Of a stretch of DNA of 64,000 bases, positions 512 through 12,888 are shown one piece after another. Under the pieces are notes generated by a model that was not told where the DNA came from, ran no database searches, and was given only the letters and a program-made list of their open reading frames with translations. The position numbers were made by a program, and so were the translations under genes. Every line of letters starts with the position of its first letter. The stretch's first letter is position 1. This stretch comes from Gammaproteobacteria bacterium (GTDB lineage: Bacteria; Pseudomonadota; Gammaproteobacteria; Ga0077536), in NCBI GenBank assembly GCA_963662545.2, contig CAXXLL010000003.1, forward strand, positions 2,144,001 to 2,208,000. Reading direction: 5' to 3'.

Positions 512-1149
512 CTAGTTAATTTGGGATTCGGCTGGCGTCGTGCTCGTCCGACCTTACATCTGCGCGACCCACGGGCAGCCACGCGCCTGAAAGCCATTCA
601 TCGTGCGTTGTCTCGAGCCCCATCGGGCATGAAGTGTTTTACGCCGATGAGGTCGATATCGACCTCAATCCCAAAATCGGTTTCCTTTGGTCTACTCAAG
701 GTTGTCAACGTGCCATCCCCACGCCTGGGCAAAACCGGAAACGCTATCTGGCGGGCGCGCTGCACGCACGAACCGGTCGCGTTGCGTATGTCGAGGGCAC
801 ACGGAAAAACAGCGACCTATTCCTTTGCCTGCTCGACCACCTGCGGCAAACTTACCGCGCCGCGCGTCGAATTATCTTGATCGTGGATAACTACATCATC
901 CACAAATGTCGCTTGGCACACGTCTGGCTAAAGCACAATCCGAAATTCCGATTGCTGTTCCAGCCGGCCTATCAGCCCTGGGTCAATGACATTGAGAAAC
1001 TCTGGAAACAGTTGCACGACAATGTCACCCGGAATCATCGTTACTCGACCATCGACCGTCTGATGGACGCAGTACGTGCCTTCATGCGTGCGGCAAGTCC
1101 ATTCCCGGGAAACTGCCCGAGTGTCGCAAGATTTGGATCACCTATTTAG
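512..1149 (+). mobile_element. IS630 3' half, cut at CTAG (512-515) by the ISNCY element
   Basis: Appears identical to 41507-42145 of the full IS630 copy; ends in the IR tttggatcacctatttag. Confidence 0.92.
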
Positions 1150-1308
1150 CTCTATTTCGAGTTCCTTGCATCCGATGCTGAGGGTGCGCAGCAAGGCCGC
1201 CTTTCCCGCATCATTCACTGCGGCGGATAGCTCTCCGTAATGGTGGGAGAGGTGGGCTGCCGTTAGCTGTGCCTGCCGCACTTCGTTTTGCACTTCATCG
1301 CTGGTCAT
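1150..1308 (-). pseudogene. Small helical protein, last visible gene of the IS1595 passenger operon, 3'-truncated by IS630
   Basis: ATG 1308 lies 8 bp after the upstream stop; MTSDEVQNEVRQAQLTAAHLSHHYGEL... runs into the IS630 end. Confidence 0.5.
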
Positions 1309-1316
1309 AGGCGATC

Positions 1317-1550
1317 CTAGATCCGCAATTCTTCGGGTTCTGGTAATTCCTCGAAGGAGCCTCCCAGCCACTCAGCGACCTGTATGCGGTAGTCCGTCCG
1401 TCCGCGCTCATAAGCGCAGATAGCGCAGGCGTGACGAGCCAGCTTCTCGCCTGACTGGTTGCGCGGCAAAGCTTGCATGATGTCGTCGTAAGGTTGCCGC
1501 CTGTCCTCGTTCGCGTTGCCGTGATGTTGCGGACAGTCGTGCTCAGCCAT
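1317..1550 (-). CDS. Small Cys/His-rich hypothetical protein (putative Zn-binding)
   Basis: 77 aa with CPQHH...LPRNQSG..RHACAICAYERG; its start overlaps the nuclease stop (TGATG). Confidence 0.7.
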   Translation of the reverse strand: MAEHDCPQHHGNANEDRRQPYDDIMQALPRNQSGEKLARHACAICAYERGRTDYRIQVAEWLGGSFEELPEPEELRI

Positions 1551-2005
1551 CAGATCCTCCCCTGTGTCTGCCAGCGATGCAGCCCGCCTTGATCTAGAAC
1601 GTCCACGAGATTCCGTTTCCCGCGCTGGCTAAGAAGCCAGTCCTTCGCGCCCTTGCTTGCGCCACCGCCGTCCAACACGATGATCGCCGGAAACGCATCA
1701 TGGGCTATGCACTCGACCTCGAACGGGAACTTCTCGTCCACGCTCCCAGATGACGCTTGCCACTTGCACTGAATAACCAGGCAGTCGGGCCACTTCTGCG
1801 GGTGATGCAGGATGAAGTCTACGCGGCGCTGTTTCGCATAAATATTCAGCCCGGTTGGAACCTGTGCTGCGTAGATGGGCTGTTGCAGGCACCTTGCGGC
1901 AAAGAATCGCGCGGGCGTGATGCGCTCGTAATCTTCGGACAGGAGATCCGCAACGCTAGTTTCCAGCGCCCGGCCGCGCCGATTGGCCCGGGTACCTCTA
2001 GTCAC
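1550..2005 (-). CDS. PD-(D/E)XK nuclease, putative type II restriction endonuclease
   Basis: RRVDF...VIQCKWQASSGSVDEKFPF motif; overlaps the MTase stop. Confidence 0.8.
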   Translation of the reverse strand: MTRGTRANRRGRALETSVADLLSEDYERITPARFFAARCLQQPIYAAQVPTGLNIYAKQRRVDFILHHPQKWPDCLVIQCKWQASSGSVDEKFPFEVECIAHDAFPAIIVLDGGGASKGAKDWLLSQRGKRNLVDVLDQGGLHRWQTQGRI

Positions 2006-2876
2006 GGATCAGCAGTTCCGGCACGCTGTCCCTGCCGTTGACATCCGAGTTGATGTTGCGCGGCGCGGTAACGTCAACGATTTCGTAATTGGCATACAGG
2101 CTGCGCATCGAGGACGTGTCCGCATTGCTCAGCAACACGCCCGCTCCCTCTCCCACCCAACCGTCGGCTGCGTCCCGTAACCGGCGCTGCGCGTCACCAG
2201 AAAAGCCCGCCGCCTGATAGCCGGTGAATGTGCCATCGTAGGGCGGGTCGCAGTAGATCAGATCTCCGGCGTCCGGCTGGACCACGCGGCCGAAGTCGCC
2301 AAGCTGAATCTGTGCACGGATCAAGGCCTTGCTCGCCTTACGCAAGCGTTCCGAGTTGCAGATATCCGGTTTCTTGTAACTGCCTTCGGGCACATTGAAT
2401 TTTCCGCTCTTGTTCACGCGGTACAGACCGTTGAAGCACGTTTTATTGAGATAGATGAATCGGGCGGCTACCTCGACCGGATCGGTCGGCTCCGATTCGC
2501 GGACGCGGTAGTAGTAGGTCTTGCCGTCTTTGTACTTTTTCCCCGCGCGCCGCCGGTGCGCCGTCTCATGCTGCGCCAGACGCGCTATCAGGGCCTCTAC
2601 GTCGTTCTTGACTATCTGATAGGTGATCATCAGCTCTTCATTCGTATCGGACAACACGGCCTGCTCGATGCGTTTGGCAAAGGTGAAGAACACGGCCCCG
2701 CCGCCCACGAACGGCTCCCAGTAGGTATTCACCTGTTCCGGGAAGTGCTGCGCTATAGCCGGGATCAGCACCCGCTTGCCACCAGCCCACTTGACGAACG
2801 GCATGGCCGCAGCAGGGCCGATATGCGGCGCGGTGGTGTGCTTGAGGACGCGCTTCAGGGGTACGACGTTACTCAT
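1998..2876 (-). CDS. Dam/D12-class N6-adenine DNA methyltransferase
   Basis: PFVKWAGGK, YWEPFVGGGAV, FIYLNKTCFNGLYRVN and DPPY motifs; ATG 2876 forms an ATGA overlap with the transposase stop. Confidence 0.93.
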   Translation of the reverse strand: MSNVVPLKRVLKHTTAPHIGPAAAMPFVKWAGGKRVLIPAIAQHFPEQVNTYWEPFVGGGAVFFTFAKRIEQAVLSDTNEELMITYQIVKNDVEALIARLAQHETAHRRRAGKKYKDGKTYYYRVRESEPTDPVEVAARFIYLNKTCFNGLYRVNKSGKFNVPEGSYKKPDICNSERLRKASKALIRAQIQLGDFGRVVQPDAGDLIYCDPPYDGTFTGYQAAGFSGDAQRRLRDAADGWVGEGAGVLLSNADTSSMRSLYANYEIVDVTAPRNINSDVNGRDSVPELLIRD

Positions 2877-3808
2877 GCCCGCGCAGCGACCAGCGCCTTG
2901 TAGGGCATCTTGACGGTTAGCCCCTGCTCGACCAGACGGGACACGCGGCCATGCTGGTCCTCGTCGTGGTTCTGCCGGAAGGCGCAAGGATCGACGTACC
3001 GAACTGAGTGCTTGTGGCTCCACCAATGGTGTGTCCCGACGTAGCAACGCTTGAGCGTCGACCAAAATGACTCGATGGAGTTCGTGTGTACGTTTCCTCT
3101 CACGTACTCGCCAGCACCATGGTTCACGCTGGCCGTGGCATAAGGCAGCCCGCGATAACCGCCATGCTCATCGGTGTAGACGCGCGATCCGGCTTCCACG
3201 GTTTCGACTATCGGCGGATGCAGATCTGCCCTCGCATTCCCATCGATCGGTCTGGCCGTCACTCGGCCGCCGCGCTCCCGAAGGCCGAGGACCGCCTGCT
3301 TTCCAACCGTCCCACGCCCCGATTCGGCTTTCGCCAGCATCTTCCGCTTCGCTTTGCTCATGTTTTTACGCTTGCCGCCGATGTACGTTTCGTCGGCTTC
3401 CACAATCCCGCTGAGCGGCGTGTCATCGTCATTGCCGGCAGCGTGGCGGATCCGTTGGAGCATGTGCCATGCGGTCTTTTGGGTCACGCCAATGTCGCTC
3501 GCCAACTGGACGCTCGAGATCCCCTTGGCGTGGTTCGTGTCGAGATAGATAGCCATGAACCACTTGGGGAGCAGCTTGATCGGGCTGTCCGCGAAAATGG
3601 TTCCGGTGATCAGCCGAAAGGTGCGTCCACACGCTTTGCACTTGTGGCGGCGTCCATCGGAGAAGTGATAGATCCCCTCTATGTTACCGCAGTGCGGGCA
3701 ATAGGGGCCGTCCGCCCATCGGGTTTCACGCAGCAGATCTAGGCAATCATCGACCGTGGCATACTTGGCCGCGAACTCCATGACCGTCATCATCTTAATT
3801 TTCTCCAA
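2873..3808 (-). CDS. IS1595 family transposase
   Basis: Zn ribbon CPHCG...CKAC, VEADETYIGG, YTDE, VHTNSIESFW. Confidence 0.95.
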   Translation of the reverse strand: MEKIKMMTVMEFAAKYATVDDCLDLLRETRWADGPYCPHCGNIEGIYHFSDGRRHKCKACGRTFRLITGTIFADSPIKLLPKWFMAIYLDTNHAKGISSVQLASDIGVTQKTAWHMLQRIRHAAGNDDDTPLSGIVEADETYIGGKRKNMSKAKRKMLAKAESGRGTVGKQAVLGLRERGGRVTARPIDGNARADLHPPIVETVEAGSRVYTDEHGGYRGLPYATASVNHGAGEYVRGNVHTNSIESFWSTLKRCYVGTHHWWSHKHSVRYVDPCAFRQNHDEDQHGRVSRLVEQGLTVKMPYKALVAARA

Positions 3809-3847
3809 TTCGTGATGTGGCCATTTTATGAGAGAATTTCTGGATCG

Positions 3848-3864
3848 TCTAGTATATAATTCCC
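3848..3864 (-). repeat. Probable left end of the IS1595 element (gggaattatatactaga on the - strand)
   Basis: IS66 tnpB homology stops exactly here; the sequence lies ~40 bp upstream of the transposase start. Confidence 0.6.
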
Positions 3865-4348
3865 TTCGTTTAAGCCTTGGCGGACCAAAGCCGACAAGCC
3901 GTGAAAAGATTTACGCATGTCGGTCGGCGACCGGCACAACCAAATGCGCAAACCGCAAGGCGCTGACCACATCAGCGACGCGCCAACCGCAACACAATAT
4001 CGGGGCCCAGGGTGACCTCGACATCCCAACCATCATTTGACGATGACCGTGGCGGTGATAACTCAATGAAGGGGATTGTTTGTGACGCGGTTTGCTCCGC
4101 CCCGGATAATGCCGACTTCCAGCGCGCAAAGGTTGAATAACCGATGCCGCGTTGCGCGCAAAAAGCTTTGACCGAGAGCCCACTTTGGGCTTGCTCTGCG
4201 AACAATGCTCGCCACGCGGCGGGTGTACGGCGCTTCCAGCGGGATTTGCGTTGTGGTGTCATGTGCCAGGCTCCTAACGGGACGGAAAACCTGGCAAACT
4301 AACTCACTGCCATTTAAATCGGAATGACGGTCTGGTTTAACCGCTTAC
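3865..4348 (-). mobile_element. IS66 left remnant: tnpA (3972-4262) and tnpB (ATG 3972) truncated by the IS1595 insertion
   Basis: End gtaagcggttaa at 4348; TnpB MWSAPCGLRIWLCRSPTDMRKSFHGL; paralogous to the IS66 at 9668-12022. Confidence 0.88.
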
Positions 4349-5098
4349 GACCGGGCGCGGGTGTGGGTGGGATTGTAGGGGGGTATCGCCGGATCAACTG
4401 GTCAAACGATCTCGCCGAATCAAGGTGTTGCGCTGGGTCAGGTGCAGCATGAAGGTAGGCGAAAGGTTGGTGCGTGTTGCGTAGCTTTCGATTAGTAGCA
4501 CACTATTATACGACTGGTTGTCAACCACCCCTGGCCCTGCATTCAATGAGCTCTCCGCTTTTGGCGATATGCACCTGAAGCGTGTCGCTTGTTCCTCTGG
4601 CGATGGTGGCGCATCCGTTCAAAAACACGATGAGAAATATCGAACAGCGCATCTTAGTCCTCCTACCTACTCTGTTTCCTCCACACTGGATATTTGCGCC
4701 GTAGAAAGATTGAAGAACCGCCCGGTTGGGTTGCGCGTTGCCGACGAATACGGTCACCGAGGTGGCGGGCTATGCCGATGGCGGAGCGGCTCGGGTGAAG
4801 CGGTCGTTGGCCGCATTGTCCGCGGTACTCCCAATGACAGGGTGGGCGTGGAACGCGCAGTCGTTCGCCTTCCCGCCGGCAATCTGGAGAAGTACGCCCG
4901 GGCGTGCCCCAAGATCGATCAGGCGACGCAGCTCGCGATTGGGGACCGCCGATAATGCACCCACGCCCAACTCTCCGACGCGGCATGTCAGACAGAGGTC
5001 AACTGACATCCCCCGTGTACGGGACCATCCATACAGTTCACCTGTCAAGTTGATCACCGTAAACTGGCTTGCGCCCTACTTCTACTTGGAGATGACAA

Positions 5099-7814
5099 GT
5101 GCCTAGTCTACCAGTCGACACCCCAGACGATGCGACTTCCCAAGAAGTAGTAGTTGAGGCCAACCGAAGAGGCATTATTTCGATTTCCGAAAACAGGATA
5201 AATTACTTCCTGTCCCGAGAACAATCCTACAATTGGAATGATCCAGAGGAATGGGTGCGAGCGGTCACAGTTGCCTGGATGGTTGTCGAAAAAGGATATC
5301 CAACTAATCGAATGAAACTGGAAGTCAGTGTGCCTCGCAGAACGCCGACGGATTTCGCGGATATCGTGATCTATGAAGACGATTCCTGTCGAGTGCCCTA
5401 CCTGGTTATCGAGAATAAGGCGTCGAATCAGAGTCGACGCAGTCGAGACCAAGGAATCGAGCAGGCGTTCGGAAATGCGAATTCTCTTCGCGCGCCTTTT
5501 ACGCTTTACGACGAAGCAGGGTTTAGCGCCCTATTTGATGTCGCCAATTTCCCGTCTACGGAACGAGTAGAAAATCTCCTTGGCGAGAGTACGACGCTAC
5601 CACCGGAGTACGGTAACGTACCCACATACTCACTCATTGCTGGAGAGCCCACCGACATTGCGGCCCTAGATTCGTACTCTCTGGAAACCCGTATTCGGCG
5701 CGCACATTCCCTTATCTGGGCAGGAGGTCGTCGAGATCCGCTTATGGCTTTCGACGAATGGAGCAAACTACTATTCGCTAAGGTAGTGGATGAACGTACT
5801 ACGCAAACCGGCGAGCCCCGTCGGTTCCAAATCGGAACGAATGAGACAACAGCCACTGTTGCAACACGAATTCATTCTCTCTTTGCACAGGCATGTTTGT
5901 CCGATCCAACGATTTTTCCTGCAGAAACACGAATTAGTTTGCCCGACTCTAAGGTTGCGGATGTTGTCAACATTTTGCAGCGTGTAGCCTTTACACGAAC
6001 TGACGTAGATAGCATTGGAAAGGCCTTTGAACAATTCTTTGGATCTATATTTCGCGGAGGGCTAGGGCAGTATTTCACCATGCGTCAATTGGCGCGATTC
6101 ATTGTCTCTGCCTTAGACATTTCGCATACTGACTATGTACTGGATCCGACATGTGGCAGTGGAGGATTTCTACTAGAGCAGCCTGCTGCAAGTGTGGTCG
6201 CGAATTGATTCGACATTCGATGGCCAACCACCGGGTCAAGTTCAACGAGTAAAGTATGACTTTTCTATGAACCAAGTATATGGAATAGAGGTTCACGAAA
6301 TACTTGCACGAATTTGCAAGATAAATCTATTGTTGCACCACGACGGCCACACAAACATCGAAGGTAATCGATCCGTACTAGATGCTGCATTTTCGAACGC
6401 CAGGCTAAATCCCCCTGAGAACAGATTTACCGCGGTAGTGGGAAATCCACCGTTCGGTACCGAGGTGGTGGAAGGGGATGAGGAGCAACTAGGTCAGAAC
6501 CGACTTGAGAATTTCGTCGTGGCCCGCGGGTTGGGAAAGGTAGATTCGGAACAGATCATTGTGGAACAAGCAATTAGAATGTTGGAACCTGGGGGACGAT
6601 TCGGGCTAATTGTGCCCGACGGCCTTCTGAACAATCAAGGGGGGAGATCGAATTGCCCGCGCTCTAGAAGGTTCATTGCAACGCAGGGAAGGATTTCGGC
6701 GATTGTGTCCCTTCCGGATCACGCATTCCGCAAATCAGGCGCGCAAAATAAGACTTCTATCCTCATGTTCGAGAAGTTCTCTATCGCAGAAAAGCGGCGA
6801 TTTGATAGAGAATACAATCGACATCGTGAGGAGGATGGAAGTCCAAGTGCTTGTATTCAACTAGCCATTAGATCCGCGCGGCTCGGATATCGGACATTTC
6901 TTGGCGAAGCCTCTGATGTAGGGTATACGCCGGCGGGTGTGTCAACACGCGCCAATGATTTGTTTGCGAGCACAGAGAACGGTGGTTTGAGCGCTGAGCA
7001 GGTGGGCACGGTATTGGGGGAATTGCGTCGGTTTAGAGCGAACCCAGGGAGATATGAGGGTTATGTCAGGCCGGATTGCGCCGGACTGTCATTCGGGGAT
7101 CTTTGGTCTGCACACCCAAGCAACCGGCTAGATCCTAAATACCATCTCTTTAAGCGTGAGTCGGGCCGAGAGGTTCCACCGGGGTGGGTAAGAAGTCGAT
7201 TAGGTGATGTATTGGAGAGACGTGAAGAGAGAGCCGTATTTGAGGGAAACGAAGATCGTCTATATACAGTAATTACAATTGCGCAAACTGGTGAAATCAG
7301 AGCGAGGGAGGCGGGCAAAGGTCACAATCCACCCGAATGGCGTGGAACATATTTTCTGGAAAGTCCTGGCAAGTGGTACGCAGCGCACGTTGGGGATGTG
7401 GTATTTTCATCTATAGACCTATGGAAGGGGTGTATTGCAATCGTACCTGAAGGCTTTGAAGGCGCGTTGGTGACGAGTGAATTTCCTATTTATTCCGTAA
7501 GAGATGGTAGATTGTCTCCAATGTTTCTACAGGTGCTCTTGCGAAGCAGGTATTATCAAAGGGCGTTTAGAGCGATCACCACGGGACACAGTAATCGGCG
7601 CAGGACGCAAGTGCCTGATTTCGAGGACTTGGAGATTGTCTTTCCGGCAGAGCTTGACGAACAGGAACAGTTGATTCTGGAGGTTCGCATCGTTAGGGGC
7701 CAGCAGCAAGGTGCCGTCAACTCATTAGCACTGGCTTTGAGGAATTTTGATGACGTCATCGACGGCAGAGGTGACGAAGTTCTTCCTGATGTTGAAGGCT
7801 CGGACAATGAATAG
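5099..7814 (+). pseudogene. Fused restriction-modification enzyme (HsdR_N-like nuclease + N6-MTase + TRD; type IIG-like), one frameshift near 6180
   Basis: PEEWVR, ADIVIY...IENK, GQYFTMR, VLDPTCGSGGFL, then a frame change (GAG cagc CTG CTG CAA GTG TGG), NPPFG and a C-terminal TRD-like region. Confidence 0.85.
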
Positions 7815-7842
7815 GCAGCCTCGCAATCGCGAAGACAGGAGA

Positions 7843-8720
7843 GTGAATCGTGAAGCGACTGAGGCCAACTTCCTGGCGTTCTTGAAGAAGTCCCCCCAGT
7901 TCTTGATACCGATCTACCAGCGCACTTATAGCTGGACGGAACGGGAGTGCGGGCAGCTCTGGGAGGACATCCTGCGAACCGGCGGCAATGACGCCATTGC
8001 GGCTCACTTTACGGGCTCCATTGTCTACATCGAAAAGGGTCTGTTTCAAATTTCTAGCCAGTCGTCACTGCTGGTTATCGACGGCCAGCAGCGTCTTGCA
8101 ACGATCATGCTCATACTTGAGGCGGTTGCGAGACATGTCGGTGACGGTGAACCAGTGGATGGATTTTCAGCGAAAAAGGTGCGCAGCTACTACCTCCTCA
8201 ACCCATTAGAAGAGGGGGAACGCGGCTTTAAGCTGCTGCTGACACAGACAGACAAGCAGAGCCTGCTTGCCCTCATGCAGCAGAAGCCAACACCGGGGGC
8301 GCGTTCGCTCCGGATTGAGCAAAATTTTGTGTTCTTCGAGGAACGGATGGGTGCGCTCGGGGCGTCCGGACTCGCAGCGCTTTGCAAGGGCATCGGAAAG
8401 CTCACGATCGTGGACGTCGCCCTCAGTCGTGATCAGGACAATCCGCAGCTCATCTTCGAGAGCATGAATTCGACCGGTCGTGAGTTGAGCCAGGCCGATC
8501 TGATCCGCAATTTCATTTAGATGGGGCTGGAGCCAGCCCATCAGACATGCCTCTATGGGGATTACTGGCGGCCGATGGAGGTCGCCTTTGGTCAGGAGGC
8601 CTACGGCACTCACTTCGACGGATTCATGAGGCACTACCTTACGTTCAAGACGGGTGACATTCCCAACGTCCGGGCGGTCTATGAAGCGTTCAAAGGCCAC
8701 GCCCGCTCTCCGACCTCTCA
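7843..8720 (+). pseudogene. GmrSD-like (DUF262) type IV restriction protein with a nonsense codon at 8518-8520, 3'-truncated
   Basis: IPIYQRTYSW, VIDGQQRL, IFESMNSTGRELSQADLIRN; the frame continues after TAG (MGLEP...YWRPME). Confidence 0.88.
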
Positions 8721-9675: not shown

Positions 9676-11259
9676 TCAAACGGCGGCGTCTGGTAATTGA
9701 TCTCGTGTTGCGGTAACGACGGCCAAGTTAGAACGCAGCGGTTGGGTAGCGAACAATGTCTTCCACACCCGAGGCGTGAGTTGTTCCACTGCGCTATCCG
9801 GATGGATCGCGATCCTCTGGAGTACATCAACCAGGTAGGTGTACGGATTAATGCCGTGTATTCGGCAAGTACAGATCAAACTTTGTATGATCCCAACGTG
9901 TTCAGCGCCCACCTCAGTCCAACAGAACATCCAATTCTTTCGGCCCATCGGAATGGGTCTCAGAGCGCGCTCTAAATGATTCGTGTCGATCGCGACGCTC
10001 GCATCCGATAAGTAAACACGTAACGCGCCCTCACGCTCGGCTGCATAGGCCAGCGCCTTCGTAAACGGCTGACTCGGTAATAAACCCATGCACTGGCGTT
10101 GCTCGTCAAGCCAGGCAAAAAATGCATCAACCGCAGGCAAGGCGTACCGGCTGCGGTAGGTCTGGGTCGCCGCTTCATCCATTGCCTGGTCACGGATGGT
10201 GGCCTCAACGGCATACAGTGCCGCGATCAAATCAAGTGCCTGCGCCGCACTTTGTGGCCTATCGGATAATGCCCTTTCGAACTGACGACGCGTGTGCGCC
10301 CAGCATTGCGCATGCACGACTTCATCGCCGCGATCGGCGGCAAAACGCGCATAAGCCGCGGCGCCATCGGTTAGTAAGGTGCCTTTAAAGTCCACCAACG
10401 TTTTGTCGATGTGCGACCGCGCCTTGGTTCGCGCAAACGTGAACGCAATCTCATCCGCTTCGCCATAAATTGGCCAATACCACGCCGCGTTCATCTTGCC
10501 CTTGCCCGAGCGACCCGCCTTAATCGGCGTTTCATCCATCGCCAGCGTCTTCGATAACAAGATATGCCGCAACTGCGCCAGATAAATCGGCTTCAACAGG
10601 TCACTTGCCTTCTGCACCCAGTGCGTCAGACTCGACCGCGCCACGGTAATGCCGTTCAGCCCCATTCGTTGATGTTGACGGTACAGCGGCAGGTGATAAG
10701 CGAACTTATCAACCAGCATCCCCGCAACCACACTCACATCCGCCAATGAGCCGGACCACAGACCATCGGGCGCCGGGATCGTGAAGATCTGACCGTCGCT
10801 TTTGCGCTTCACTACCGGTTGGATGTACTTCAAGACCACATAGGCCGCCGGCCGTTGCGCTAAACGATAGGTGATCTTTTCACTGCTCGCTTCAAACGCA
10901 TCCGCGACATCTTCAGGTACCGACAATTGGATGCATTCAATCGGCACCGAGTCATCGAAACGTAACCCTTGATCAGTCACACAATCATCGCCACGGCGCT
11001 TTCCTTTGCGCCGCTGATAAGTGATCGTTTCTTTCTCAACCGCCGCCGTCGATGACGACTCATCCTCGAAGCCATTGAGTAACCGTTGATCGGGATTGGG
11101 ATCAATCAGCCGCCGTTCAGACTTGCGACCGAACAGTTGGCGTTTGAACCAGTCGAGTTGTTGGGTGAGTGTGGCGACCTGCGTTTTGAGGGCTGTGTTT
11201 TCCGCTTGTAACACCGCCGCATCAAGTGATATTTCCGGCGTTGCATAACCCCCATTCAT
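9676..11259 (-). CDS. tnpC: IS66 transposase TnpC
   Basis: QLFGRKSE, KFAYHLPLYRQ, MDETP, LLTDG, CWAHTRR, DTNHLERALR. Confidence 0.95.
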   Translation of the reverse strand: MNGGYATPEISLDAAVLQAENTALKTQVATLTQQLDWFKRQLFGRKSERRLIDPNPDQRLLNGFEDESSSTAAVEKETITYQRRKGKRRGDDCVTDQGLRFDDSVPIECIQLSVPEDVADAFEASSEKITYRLAQRPAAYVVLKYIQPVVKRKSDGQIFTIPAPDGLWSGSLADVSVVAGMLVDKFAYHLPLYRQHQRMGLNGITVARSSLTHWVQKASDLLKPIYLAQLRHILLSKTLAMDETPIKAGRSGKGKMNAAWYWPIYGEADEIAFTFARTKARSHIDKTLVDFKGTLLTDGAAAYARFAADRGDEVVHAQCWAHTRRQFERALSDRPQSAAQALDLIAALYAVEATIRDQAMDEAATQTYRSRYALPAVDAFFAWLDEQRQCMGLLPSQPFTKALAYAAEREGALRVYLSDASVAIDTNHLERALRPIPMGRKNWMFCWTEVGAEHVGIIQSLICTCRIHGINPYTYLVDVLQRIAIHPDSAVEQLTPRVWKTLFATQPLRSNLAVVTATRDQLPDAAV

Positions 11260-11277
11260 GGGTACGTATTGTACCGT

Positions 11278-11646
11278 TTACACTGCTGACCGTCGATCGT
11301 TTTCCGGTAATCGAAACCGTTTTAATCGACGCACTGAGCGTAGATCGATCCCTTCAATAATGCACTGCCATTCGCTGCGTTGCAGCCGCTGTTTGACCTC
11401 GCTATTCCACCGAACCTGGAACTGACCGCGTTCGAGTTTCTTACTCCACAGACAATATCCGTCCGACTCAAAGTACAGCGCTTTTAATAACGTACGCCGG
11501 CGATTGACGAAAACGTACAGTGCCCCATCGAGGGGCTCCTCGTGTAACGCCTGCCGCACCAACGCCGATAAACCATGGAACGATTGACGCATATCAGTCG
11601 GTGCCCGACATAACCATATACGCAAACCCGATGGGGGCGACCACAT
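11278..11646 (-). CDS. tnpB: IS66 accessory protein TnpB
   Basis: PTDMRQSFHGL, YVFVNRRR, KKLERGQF. Confidence 0.93.
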   Translation of the reverse strand: MWSPPSGLRIWLCRAPTDMRQSFHGLSALVRQALHEEPLDGALYVFVNRRRTLLKALYFESDGYCLWSKKLERGQFQVRWNSEVKQRLQRSEWQCIIEGIDLRSVRRLKRFRLPENDRRSAV

Positions 11647-11936
11647 CAGTGCCGTGACACACGTAGCACGATGTCATCACCGAGCGCTAACTCGATATCC
11701 CATTGTGCATTGGTTAATGGTTGTAACGGGGCCAACTCGACGAAACGTGTTTCCGCCTTCCCTATCTGAGCGTCCCTCGCTGACCTCGACTTCCTTTTAC
11801 TGAACGTCGAATATCCAATTCCTCGCTCAGCACAGAATGCGCGGATCGATGAACCGCTTTGTGCCTGCTCCGCTAATAGGCCACGCCACTCATCCGCACT
11901 ACGTCGTTTGTTCCGAGGTTTTCCGTGATCATTCAT
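11646..11936 (-). CDS. tnpA: IS66 accessory protein TnpA (HTH)
   Basis: W...QAQSGSSIRAFCAERGI motif; position within IS66. Confidence 0.9.
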   Translation of the reverse strand: MNDHGKPRNKRRSADEWRGLLAEQAQSGSSIRAFCAERGIGYSTFSKRKSRSARDAQIGKAETRFVELAPLQPLTNAQWDIELALGDDIVLRVSRH

Positions 11937-12022
11937 TTACCAAGCTCCCGATTGACTGGGAAACCTGGCAAACTAAACCATCTGCCCGAGACCGTGAATA
12001 ACGGCCTGGATTGACCGGTTAC

Positions 12023-12888
12023 ACTCAAACTCCTTCGCGTATTTCTGAAGGTGCTTCCCGGAAACGTGGACGTGCGTCCCGCGGATCGAAAGCTTGAGGC
12101 GTGCCCAGTAGCCTTCCATGCCGTTGACGTGGCACGCACCGCTCACATATTCACCCGCGCCGTGATTAACCGTCTCATGCTCGTATCCGGCCCGAGACAG
12201 CCCGCTATAGGACTTCAGTTCGTCGGTATGAACCGTGCTGCCCGCTTTGACGTTCGCCTTGATGATGGGCTGAAGGGTCTTTTTACGCACGTTCGGAACG
12301 ACCTTCGTCATCACATCGCCGCCACGTTCAAGCATACCGAACACAACAGTTTTACCGGGAGCGCCGCGTCCGCGTTTGCCGCCAGATCTCTTACCGCCCA
12401 CATACGTCTCATCCGCCTCAATATCGCCGCCTCCAGGTCCGCCCAACGGCCACTCGCCGTCCGTATCGGCCATATACTTGCGGATCTGGTGCGCCATGCG
12501 CCACGCACACTTGTAAGTCACACCAAGCTGACGCTCCAATTCCTTCGCTGCCACCCCGTGACGAGAGACAGAGAACAAGTGCATCGCATAAAACCACTTA
12601 TGGAGCGGGGTGCGACTGCGGTGCATGAGCGTTCCGGCGCAGGGGTAGATATGATGCTTGCAGTGCTGGCACAGATAGGCTCGGTCGCGTTTCAGGCGAT
12701 AGAACTTGCTGTGCTGCCCGCACTTCGGGCAGTCGAACTCTGTACCGCCGTAGCGCGCGGTCATCATGTGATGCAAGCACGCCTCATCGTCCGGGAACTG
12801 CTTTTGAAATTCGTAGAATGTCGTCATCGCCTTCTCCTATGCCCCTATATTAGGGCATGAGTGATGACGTGTTAAGGGGATAATTACG
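12023..12888 (-). mobile_element. IS1595 copy, 3'-truncated by IS66 (transposase start 12827)
   Basis: Inverted copy of 15065-15930; the translation is identical up to YAKEFE. Confidence 0.93.

Follow-up and report, generated by a model that had tools for sequence, protein, structure and literature searches.

In a 64,000-nucleotide stretch of the genome of a Gammaproteobacteria bacterium (NCBI GenBank assembly GCA_963662545.2, contig CAXXLL010000003.1, positions 2,144,001 to 2,208,000 of the forward strand; hereafter the window), a gene for an IS1595-family transposase (tnp) heads an operon that continues with genes for a Dam-like DNA methyltransferase, a small PD-(D/E)XK nuclease and a 77-amino-acid (aa) cysteine/histidine (Cys/His) protein. 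A preliminary description of this DNA had proposed an IS1595 transporter insertion sequence (IS) with passengers resembling a restriction-modification (RM) system, and the comparison of relatives bears this out: a unit enclosed by 23-bp inverted repeats and flanked by 8-bp duplications lies at 23 sites in several phyla. It is close to certain that tnp and its RM-like cargo form one transposon and that the window copy is a stranded member of it. Taken as a whole, we consider it probable that the unit is an IS1595 transporter IS carrying a GATC-specific type II RM pair, a function assigned by homology, and that the window holds a copy which can no longer leave. This reading builds on the directly observed anatomy of the unit, on repeats and duplications found across the family, and on the family assignments of its proteins.

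The four genes lie on one strand in the order already described, and coordinates together with Pfam and NCBIfam assignments confirm both the order and the overlaps: tnp and the methyltransferase gene share an ATGA, the methyltransferase and nuclease genes overlap by 8 bp, and the nuclease gene and the 77-aa gene share a TGATG (Table 1). The ATGA leaves no room for an IS right end between tnp and the methyltransferase gene, in agreement with the absence of such an end noted in the preliminary description. The transposase matches DDE_Tnp_IS1595 (PF12762, 1.6e-35) and Zn_ribbon_IS1595 (PF12760, 9.8e-12) in Pfam, and the IS1595 model of NCBIfam (NF033547, 5.5e-53) at 180 bits against a cut-off of 75. 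Upstream of tnp, the left inverted repeat, GGGAATTATATACTAGACGATCC, adjoins the stump of an IS66-family element. The repeat starts with GGGAATTAT, which fits ggnnatTAT, presumably the motif in which members of the ISNwi1 subgroup of IS1595 end.

Table 1. The stranded IS1595-family element and the features that bound it, in window coordinates.
Feature	Position	Strand	Remarks
Left inverted repeat	3842..3864	-	GGGAATTATATACTAGACGATCC, 1 mismatch to family consensus; GATC at its positions 19-22
Sigma-70-like promoter, predicted	3823..3851	-	-35 TAGACG within left repeat, 17-nt spacer, -10 TAAAAT
IS1595-family DDE transposase (tnp), N-terminal zinc ribbon	2873..3793	-	306 aa, intact; Pfam/NCBIfam
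Dam/DpnM-type N6-adenine DNA methyltransferase	1998..2876	-	292 aa; start overlaps tnp stop
PD-(D/E)XK nuclease, candidate restriction endonuclease	1550..2005	-	151 aa, GTG start; Pfam PDDEXK_11
Cys/His protein, optional fourth cargo gene	1317..1550	-	77 aa; domain without Pfam or NCBIfam model
Right inverted repeat remnant	1308..1317	-	inner 10 nt retained (9/10 match); outer 13 nt replaced
'Helical' open reading frame, flanking DNA outside the unit	1150..1308	-	ATG at 1308; cut by IS630
IS630-family copy, right part (boundary)	512..1149	+	split by ISNCY copy further left
IS66-family stump, 486 bp (boundary)	3864..4349	-	tnpA and first 27 codons of tnpB

Scanning one genome per species for the nuclease gave 53 loci in 47 records, all of which were compared with the four window proteins and with the repeat consensus. 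A Dam-type methyltransferase gene lies directly upstream of the nuclease gene in 43 of these loci, and an IS1595 transposase gene stands upstream on the same strand in 32 (full length in 26). Both 23-bp inverted repeats are present in 26 loci; 23 of these complete elements have perfect 8-bp flanking duplications, which are all mutually different and 86% A+T. The right repeat of the complete relatives begins 2-7 nt past the last cargo gene and is never found between tnp and the methyltransferase gene. The preliminary description had named a right repeat at the 3' end of tnp, or homologous RM operons never linked to IS1595 with a single junction only, as signs of a chance fusion; instead, the right repeat always follows the cargo. 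The overlap of tnp stop and methyltransferase start (ATGA) is kept in 24 of 27 elements, the other three having a broken tnp. As to size, 19 three-gene elements measure 2300-2349 bp, six with a fourth small gene 2517-2624 bp, and one 2950 bp. In three relatives, as in the window, this additional gene encodes a Cys/His protein; in three Vicinamibacterales copies an unrelated 63-aa open reading frame (ORF) stands in its place. The slot is optional, and of the two accessory genes initially proposed only one stands.

As seen in these relatives, the element has moved as a whole unit among several phyla and into different sites. Carriers named in the records include Paracoccaceae, Nitrosomonadaceae, Gallionella, Arenicellales, Vicinamibacterales and Caldilineaceae, and further Dehalococcoidia, Poribacteria, Binatia, Latescibacterota, Limisphaerales and others; several of the record names refer to sponges. 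The preliminary description had suggested looking for the same synteny at other loci, and the tnp-methyltransferase-nuclease order indeed recurs at 23 different sites. One copy from a same-genus genome (G001), 39-57% identical to that of the window and placed elsewhere, has the same order of overlapping genes, ending with a 74-aa Cys/His protein. It is bounded by perfect 23/23-nt inverted repeats and an 8-bp duplication, TTTAATTA, directly before ychF. Identity to the window copy is 50% for the transposase, 51% for the methyltransferase, 57% for the nuclease and 39% for the Cys/His protein. The last base of the duplication is the A with which ychF starts (L017, 8054-8090), so the right repeat is now the entire upstream region of ychF. 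One of the 26 complete elements (L038) is identical to the G001 copy in all four proteins and is not independent of it.

The nearest relatives of the G001 copy are the Vicinamibacterales copies (76/72/79% identity) and those of the window copy are copies in alphaproteobacterial metagenome-assembled genomes (MAGs; about 60%), indicating that two genomes of the same genus hold different lineages of the element. Pairwise identities of transposase, methyltransferase and nuclease co-vary over 24 elements (r 0.85-0.93; Mantel 0/2000 permutations), a figure inflated by several near-identical copies among the 24. One Nitrosomonadaceae MAG contains five full copies and a fragment (L025-L029, L067). All three complete copies without matching flanks come from this MAG, and one of them has on its left the flank that another has on its right, a pattern that points to recombination between copies.

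The window copy itself is truncated at about 1307/1308, because among the 23 nt after the stop codon of the 77-aa gene only the inner part matches the expected right repeat (9/10) and the outer part does not (1/13). No right repeat was detected from 9 kb left of the window (position -9000) to position 3800 with up to 8/25 mismatches, nor genome-wide. Having lost the 13 outermost nt on the right, this copy is probably no longer mobile; the mobile, IS-sized element of the preliminary description is therefore found in the relatives, which are bounded by repeats and duplications, and not in the window, and an 8-bp duplication is unreadable here with the right flank gone. The left repeat does adjoin 27 codons of an IS66 tnpB, a junction previously taken as proof of movement. 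However, the other 1865 bp of this IS66 copy are absent from the whole 5.58-Mb assembly, where two intact IS66 copies lie at other places. Hence no target duplication can be used to close the left junction, which alone is no proof of insertion. Both the right repeat and the remainder of tnpB, which had been expected beyond the insertions to the left, are in this way missing from the genome. Stretches near-identical to that of the window were found in sequencing runs of 9 studies (20 rows of runs), among them one with the label "sponge metagenome". In one of these runs, which belongs to another study, a contig of 2719 bp covers 1147-3865 and has 3 differences, showing that both window junctions exist in that run too. 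In a further run (X17), the match of a 1865-bp contig, from a variant with 99% identity, extends just 12 nt past the left repeat (window 3864-3876) and breaks off in the IS66 stump; there may be another junction or another IS66 variant at this point. With its genes and left end intact, the stranded copy probably still expresses its genes.

An additional gene had been assigned to the operon in the preliminary description, the helical ORF next to the 77-aa gene. Its start codon lies within the right-repeat remnant, and the ORF is cut by an IS630-family copy, without which it would extend 8 codons further. No homologue was found among proteins of 29-93 aa, the length range searched, and the ORF is absent from 26 of 26 complete relatives. 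We therefore rejected it as a member of the unit and regard it as foreign flank.

The methyltransferase matches Pfam MethyltransfD12 (1e-59) and the Dam-family model TIGR00571 (258.8 bits against a cut-off of 114.85). Among proteins of solved structure, it is closest to DpnM of the DpnII system (5.8e-48), with E. coli Dam (EcoDam; 8e-34) in second place. When aligned to both, it keeps the DPPY motif, and the columns of EcoDam K9, L122, R124, P134 and Y138, which we take to be GATC contacts, are all conserved. By this homology, the enzyme most likely methylates GATC. PADLOC assigns it to type II methyltransferases (4.5e-83), with the orphan-methyltransferase model scoring nearly as high (1.5e-78). 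As it is the only D12-class methyltransferase in the genome, the stranded copy supplies this genome's only Dam-class methylase.

The nuclease is assigned to PDDEXK_11 (PF20472, 8.8e-26) with 90.8 bits against a gathering cut-off of 23.7. Across 25 sequences, E15, D63, K81 and K92 are invariant, and Q79 and E96 are nearly so; position 79 is E in one sequence (L057). In a wide structure search with its model (predicted local distance difference test (pLDDT) score 89.8), BstEII led (Z 9.9, root-mean-square deviation 3.8, 134 aligned), followed by Can2 (9.6) and Bax1 (9.3), with BsoBI, PspGI, NgoMIV, SgrAI, BsaWI, PfoI and others at Z 6-8. This supports a restriction-endonuclease fold for the modelled nuclease and nothing beyond. 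A sequence search of the PDB gave a best E of 0.64, and phage records gave no match. An hhalign comparison with two DpnII-family proteins from other genomes (E 6.1e-5, probability 65%, 110 columns) aligned the motifs N-R-x-G...E, D-F, (E/Q)-x-(K/N), S-G-(G/S)-S and D-G-x-G, a weak but consistent signal that suggests remote similarity to the DpnII family, not membership.

As in a type II RM system, methyltransferase and endonuclease-type genes are separate and adjacent, both in the window and in 43 of the 53 loci. The pair also occurs without any transposase gene (12/53 loci), next to housekeeping genes in those scanned, and on an Alicyclobacillus plasmid it stands beside an Abi gene. At four Poribacteria loci (L063-L066), the nuclease homologue was found without a Dam-type methyltransferase or transposase. 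In L064 and L065 an N6_N4 methyltransferase gene directly follows the nuclease gene, and the one in L064 includes a MutH domain as well; L063 and L066 have Mrr-type nuclease genes near the homologue.

The fourth gene of the window copy lies downstream of the nuclease gene and not upstream, a position to be compared with that of the controller (C) proteins of RM systems. Its 77-aa product matches no Pfam or NCBIfam family, helix-turn-helix families included, and neither database has a model for the Cys/His domain itself. A 90%-clustered collection holds 13 close relatives, none of them named, which share a Cys near the N-terminus and the pattern LP-x-x-Q-x-G...R-H-x-C-x-x-C-A-Y-x-x-G. The model of the 77-aa protein shows two long helices (pLDDT 76.8); a fold search with it gave no match above Z 3.1, and the protein Atlas gave no usable match for the protein or for a two-domain fusion. 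The motif of the domain can be written as C-x-H...LP-x-S-Q-x-G-x-G-R-H-K-C-x-x-C-A-Y-x-x-G. Scanning metagenomes with the pattern of the close relatives yielded 16 loci (L090-L105), ten of them with a Dam-type methyltransferase nearby and two with full flanks and no methyltransferase. At four of the 16, two domain copies form the N-terminus of a 452-459-aa protein; the two of these fusions that were scanned against Pfam carry GmrSD_N (DUF262), and the other two have the same signature motifs.

A profile of the domain searched against 1.84 billion representatives retrieved 630 proteins with E<=0.001, of which 216 have E<=1e-10; a frequent form is 220-300 aa long and carries two N-terminal domain copies. 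Thirty longer proteins, hand-picked from 150 listed and not a random sample, were scanned against Pfam: 15 carry NOV_C (DUF3883), two DndB, and one each PLDc_2, MutH/MvaI_BcnI, HNH, AAA_5 and Trypsin_2, with one giving odd matches and seven none. The commonest arrangement is a tandem pair of domain copies N-terminal in a protein with DUF3883/NOV_C. NCBIfam identifies the MutH-type fusion as Sau3AI/MutH-like (5.7e-20) and the AAA_5 fusion as McrB-like (5.5e-38). In the sections of PMC6765204 that deal with it, DUF3883 is the PD-(D/E)XK catalytic domain of modification-dependent enzymes, and the N-terminal domains of these enzymes are sensors. Because of this role of the N-terminal domains, we infer from domain architecture that the Cys/His module may be a DNA-binding or DNA-state-reading domain; on the same grounds, the window gene would be a free-standing form that serves the small nuclease.

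Together, these data suggest a model in which a 2.3-2.6-kb IS1595-family transporter IS would be expressed as one operon from a promoter with its -35 inside the left repeat, in the order transposase, Dam/DpnM-type methyltransferase with its start overlapping the tnp stop, small PD-(D/E)XK nuclease and, in some lineages, Cys/His protein. The methyltransferase would methylate GATC and the nuclease would cut GATC that is unmethylated, and the order of the genes, with a nuclease that starts at a weak GTG, would let methylation precede cutting. Such a compact type II RM pair would guard against foreign DNA and penalise loss of the element, and the transposase would move all of it, both inside a genome and from one genome to another. 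The cargo is likely a GATC-specific type II RM pair that was picked up by an IS1595 element, with specificity and restriction read from sequence similarity.

Several observations weigh against this model. The GATC specificity of the pair is deduced from homology, and its restriction activity and addiction role are putative. The nuclease scores 17.5 bits against PF04556 (DpnII/MboI; E 0.0028), below the gathering cut-off of 23, and its 151 residues leave out the N-terminal half of DpnII. It has no Foldseek match at E<=0.001 and no restriction-endonuclease match in PADLOC (v2.0.0), and Z scores of 8-10 against the PDB are little above the level reached by unrelated models. The genome contains 44,076 GATC sites at an observed/expected ratio of 1.04, and this non-avoidance agrees with an absence of restriction just as well as with full methylation. 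Several relatives have a methyltransferase frame that ends about 30 codons early, which would be dangerous beside an active nuclease; in the Nitrosomonadaceae MAG, this applies to four of the five copies, with the nuclease intact. These early ends are either an assembly error or a defect buffered by copy number, with another copy supplying the methyltransferase. With the right end of the window copy gone, mobility is shown for relatives only. At the RNA level, the support consists of one exact 189-bp contig inside tnp from one metatranscriptome, and otherwise of relatives only; as this contig may be DNA carry-over, we do not count it as expression.

The small size of the nuclease, which falls below all curated restriction-endonuclease models, would also fit an enzyme other than a classical restriction endonuclease, either a nicking or repair-type one in the style of MutH/Vsr or one that senses modification, with the methyltransferase as an orphan epigenetic enzyme. 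The strong match of the methyltransferase to the PADLOC orphan model points the same way, as does the optional Cys/His partner, whose domain is fused elsewhere to MutH/Sau3AI-type, McrB-type and DUF3883 nucleases, architectures described as typical of modification-dependent enzymes in the relevant part of PMC6765204. However, methyltransferase and nuclease genes are adjacent in 43 of 53 loci and often overlap, the hallmark of a cognate pair, and a nuclease that cuts Dam-methylated DNA beside its own Dam would be lethal. We consider such a non-classical role improbable.

The fold and the translational link of the nuclease to the operon of a DDE transposase could instead suggest an accessory of transposition, by which the second strand would be cut in the manner of TnsA in Tn7. 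Against this, the pair has no transposase beside it in 12 of the 53 loci or on the plasmid, the other IS1595 transposases of the genome stand alone, and the nuclease is counted here as always paired with a methyltransferase; a TnsA-like function is accordingly very improbable. That an IS1595 copy and an unrelated RM operon came to lie side by side by chance could be suspected from the window copy, which has one recognisable end only. The 23 relatives with target duplications enclose all genes between their repeats and the ATGA overlap is conserved, and we regard chance juxtaposition as refuted by these repeat-bounded, duplication-flanked elements, with next to no probability left for it.

A different question, compatible with the transporter IS model, is whether the methyltransferase serves the element itself. 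Host Dam controls IS10 and IS50 via GATC sites in their ends and promoters, and by analogy an element with a Dam of its own could control its own timing. The only sigma-70-like site between 1100 and 4000 is the predicted promoter, whose -35 is part of the left repeat and reads TTGACG in most relatives; the last base of this -35 falls within the GATC of the repeat. The carried Dam-type enzyme would then mainly methylate the GATC in both repeats and on the -35, and transposase binding and operon transcription would follow the methylation state, responding when the DNA has just been replicated or has arrived in a naive cell, with the nuclease as addiction partner only. The products of the operon would be made and the ends of the element used only on un- or hemimethylated DNA, and the Cys/His protein might act as reader of the GATC state. 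This would fit with the occurrence of GATC in 50 of 52 repeat arms, in each case at positions 19-22, and with a -35/-10 pair with GATC on the -35 edge at the same place in 24 of 27 elements, the spacers of which differ. It would also fit a host that has no other D12-class methyltransferase. On the other side, the neighbouring positions of the repeat are at least as conserved as the GATC, which may simply belong to the transposase binding site, and no cargo-free IS1595 copies with clear or the same repeats, which could serve for comparison, were found at the same loci or in the window's own genome. We therefore regard self-timing, in either its simpler form or with the Cys/His protein as reader, as a tentative idea that is unlikely, if less so than a non-classical nuclease.

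Elsewhere in the genome, outside the window, three perfect or near-perfect palindromes of 44 bp (L082, about 1490-1545; L084; L085) consist of two IS1595-type repeat arms head to head, with the arm core TATATACTTGACGAC and no GATC. They have the look of derivatives of a related IS that was reduced to its repeats. At the place of the GATC these related-type mini-palindromes read GACGAC, not the GACGATC of the element, a difference that speaks for self-timing.

To the left of the stranded element, insertions are nested: an ISNCY copy of about 1.7 kb lies within the IS630 copy, which in turn cuts the adjoining DNA. The ISNCY copy (window -1191..515, negative positions lying left of the window) has roughly 60 full or partial matches in its own genome, and the other half of the IS630 copy it splits is at -1703..-1185. 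The ends of the IS630 copy and its target, CTAG, could be read, and about 19 full-length relatives of it are present in the genome. Left of it follow 2.7 kb of unique, G+C-rich DNA with long overlapping ORFs on both strands (L018, 5587-8296), with no Pfam family and, in 40 related genomes, no relative beyond one 45-nt match; on the far side of this stretch is an IS6/IS240-type copy. To the right of the element, remains of a defence island occupy window positions 5099-8520 and 9676-12827. They include an Eco57I-like N6 methylase/HsdR_N gene split in two frames (5099-6208 and 6192-7814) and a 257-aa GmrSD_N fragment (7747-8520), followed by an IS66 transposase and another IS1595 transposase.

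The element offers a clean and well-replicated case of how an RM pair travels, with the cargo in a single operon headed by the transposase and a near-identical architecture across groups that include Proteobacteria, Acidobacteriota and Chloroflexota. Many titles of the records indicate symbionts of marine sponges. Through this element, PDDEXK_11 becomes a candidate for a very small GATC endonuclease, one that the defence-gene library of PADLOC v2.0.0 misses. The Cys/His domain, which has no Pfam or NCBIfam model and accompanies many types of nuclease, merits biochemical attention. IS1595 transposons with passengers and transposon-like RM units are already described; the conserved coupling of tnp to the methyltransferase, the GATC on a promoter within the repeat and the Cys/His domain may be new. 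A literature search, which did not extend to ISfinder, REBASE or Siguier et al. 2009, returned no paper on an IS1595 element with Dam and PDDEXK_11, and an earlier description is possible.

Compared with known systems, the pair resembles DpnII/MboI systems in that the methyltransferase is nearest to DpnM and the motif order of the nuclease is that of the C-terminal half of DpnII-family enzymes. It differs from them in a nuclease of half the size that stays below the PF04556 cut-off, and in having no second, DpnA-type methyltransferase. The passenger-carrying transporter IS (tIS) was defined on the IS1595 family, a definition that the sections consulted of PMC3129680 and PMC5704250 credit to Siguier, Gagnevin and Chandler 2009, and tISCpe8 and MTnSag1 are given 25-bp repeats and 8-bp duplications in that part of PMC5704250. 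Like these two, the present element has an IS1595-type DDE transposase, repeats of about 25 bp, an 8-bp duplication as read in its complete relatives, and passengers inside the repeats: the right repeat follows the nuclease or fourth gene in the relatives, and its remnant follows the 77-aa gene in the window. Unlike in tISCpe8, a lincomycin resistance element, the passengers are a Dam-type RM pair coupled to tnp, plus an optional small gene, and unlike both tIS, the window copy has no right end. Furuta, Abe and Kobayashi 2010 described RM units with imperfect inverted repeats and 8-bp duplications, among them an N. gonorrhoeae unit with 26-bp repeats and a transposase-like gene (COG3677), and cite Siguier et al. 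for RM or methyltransferase genes linked to IS elements (main text of PMC2853133). The present element shares with them RM genes within inverted repeats and 8-bp duplications. In the main text of that paper, with which the comparison was made and whose supplementary tables may list closer cases, the units are single cases with a transposase that is absent or judged inactive (PMC2853133); in contrast, here an intact transposase heads the operon, and the unit is found in 23 independent insertions.

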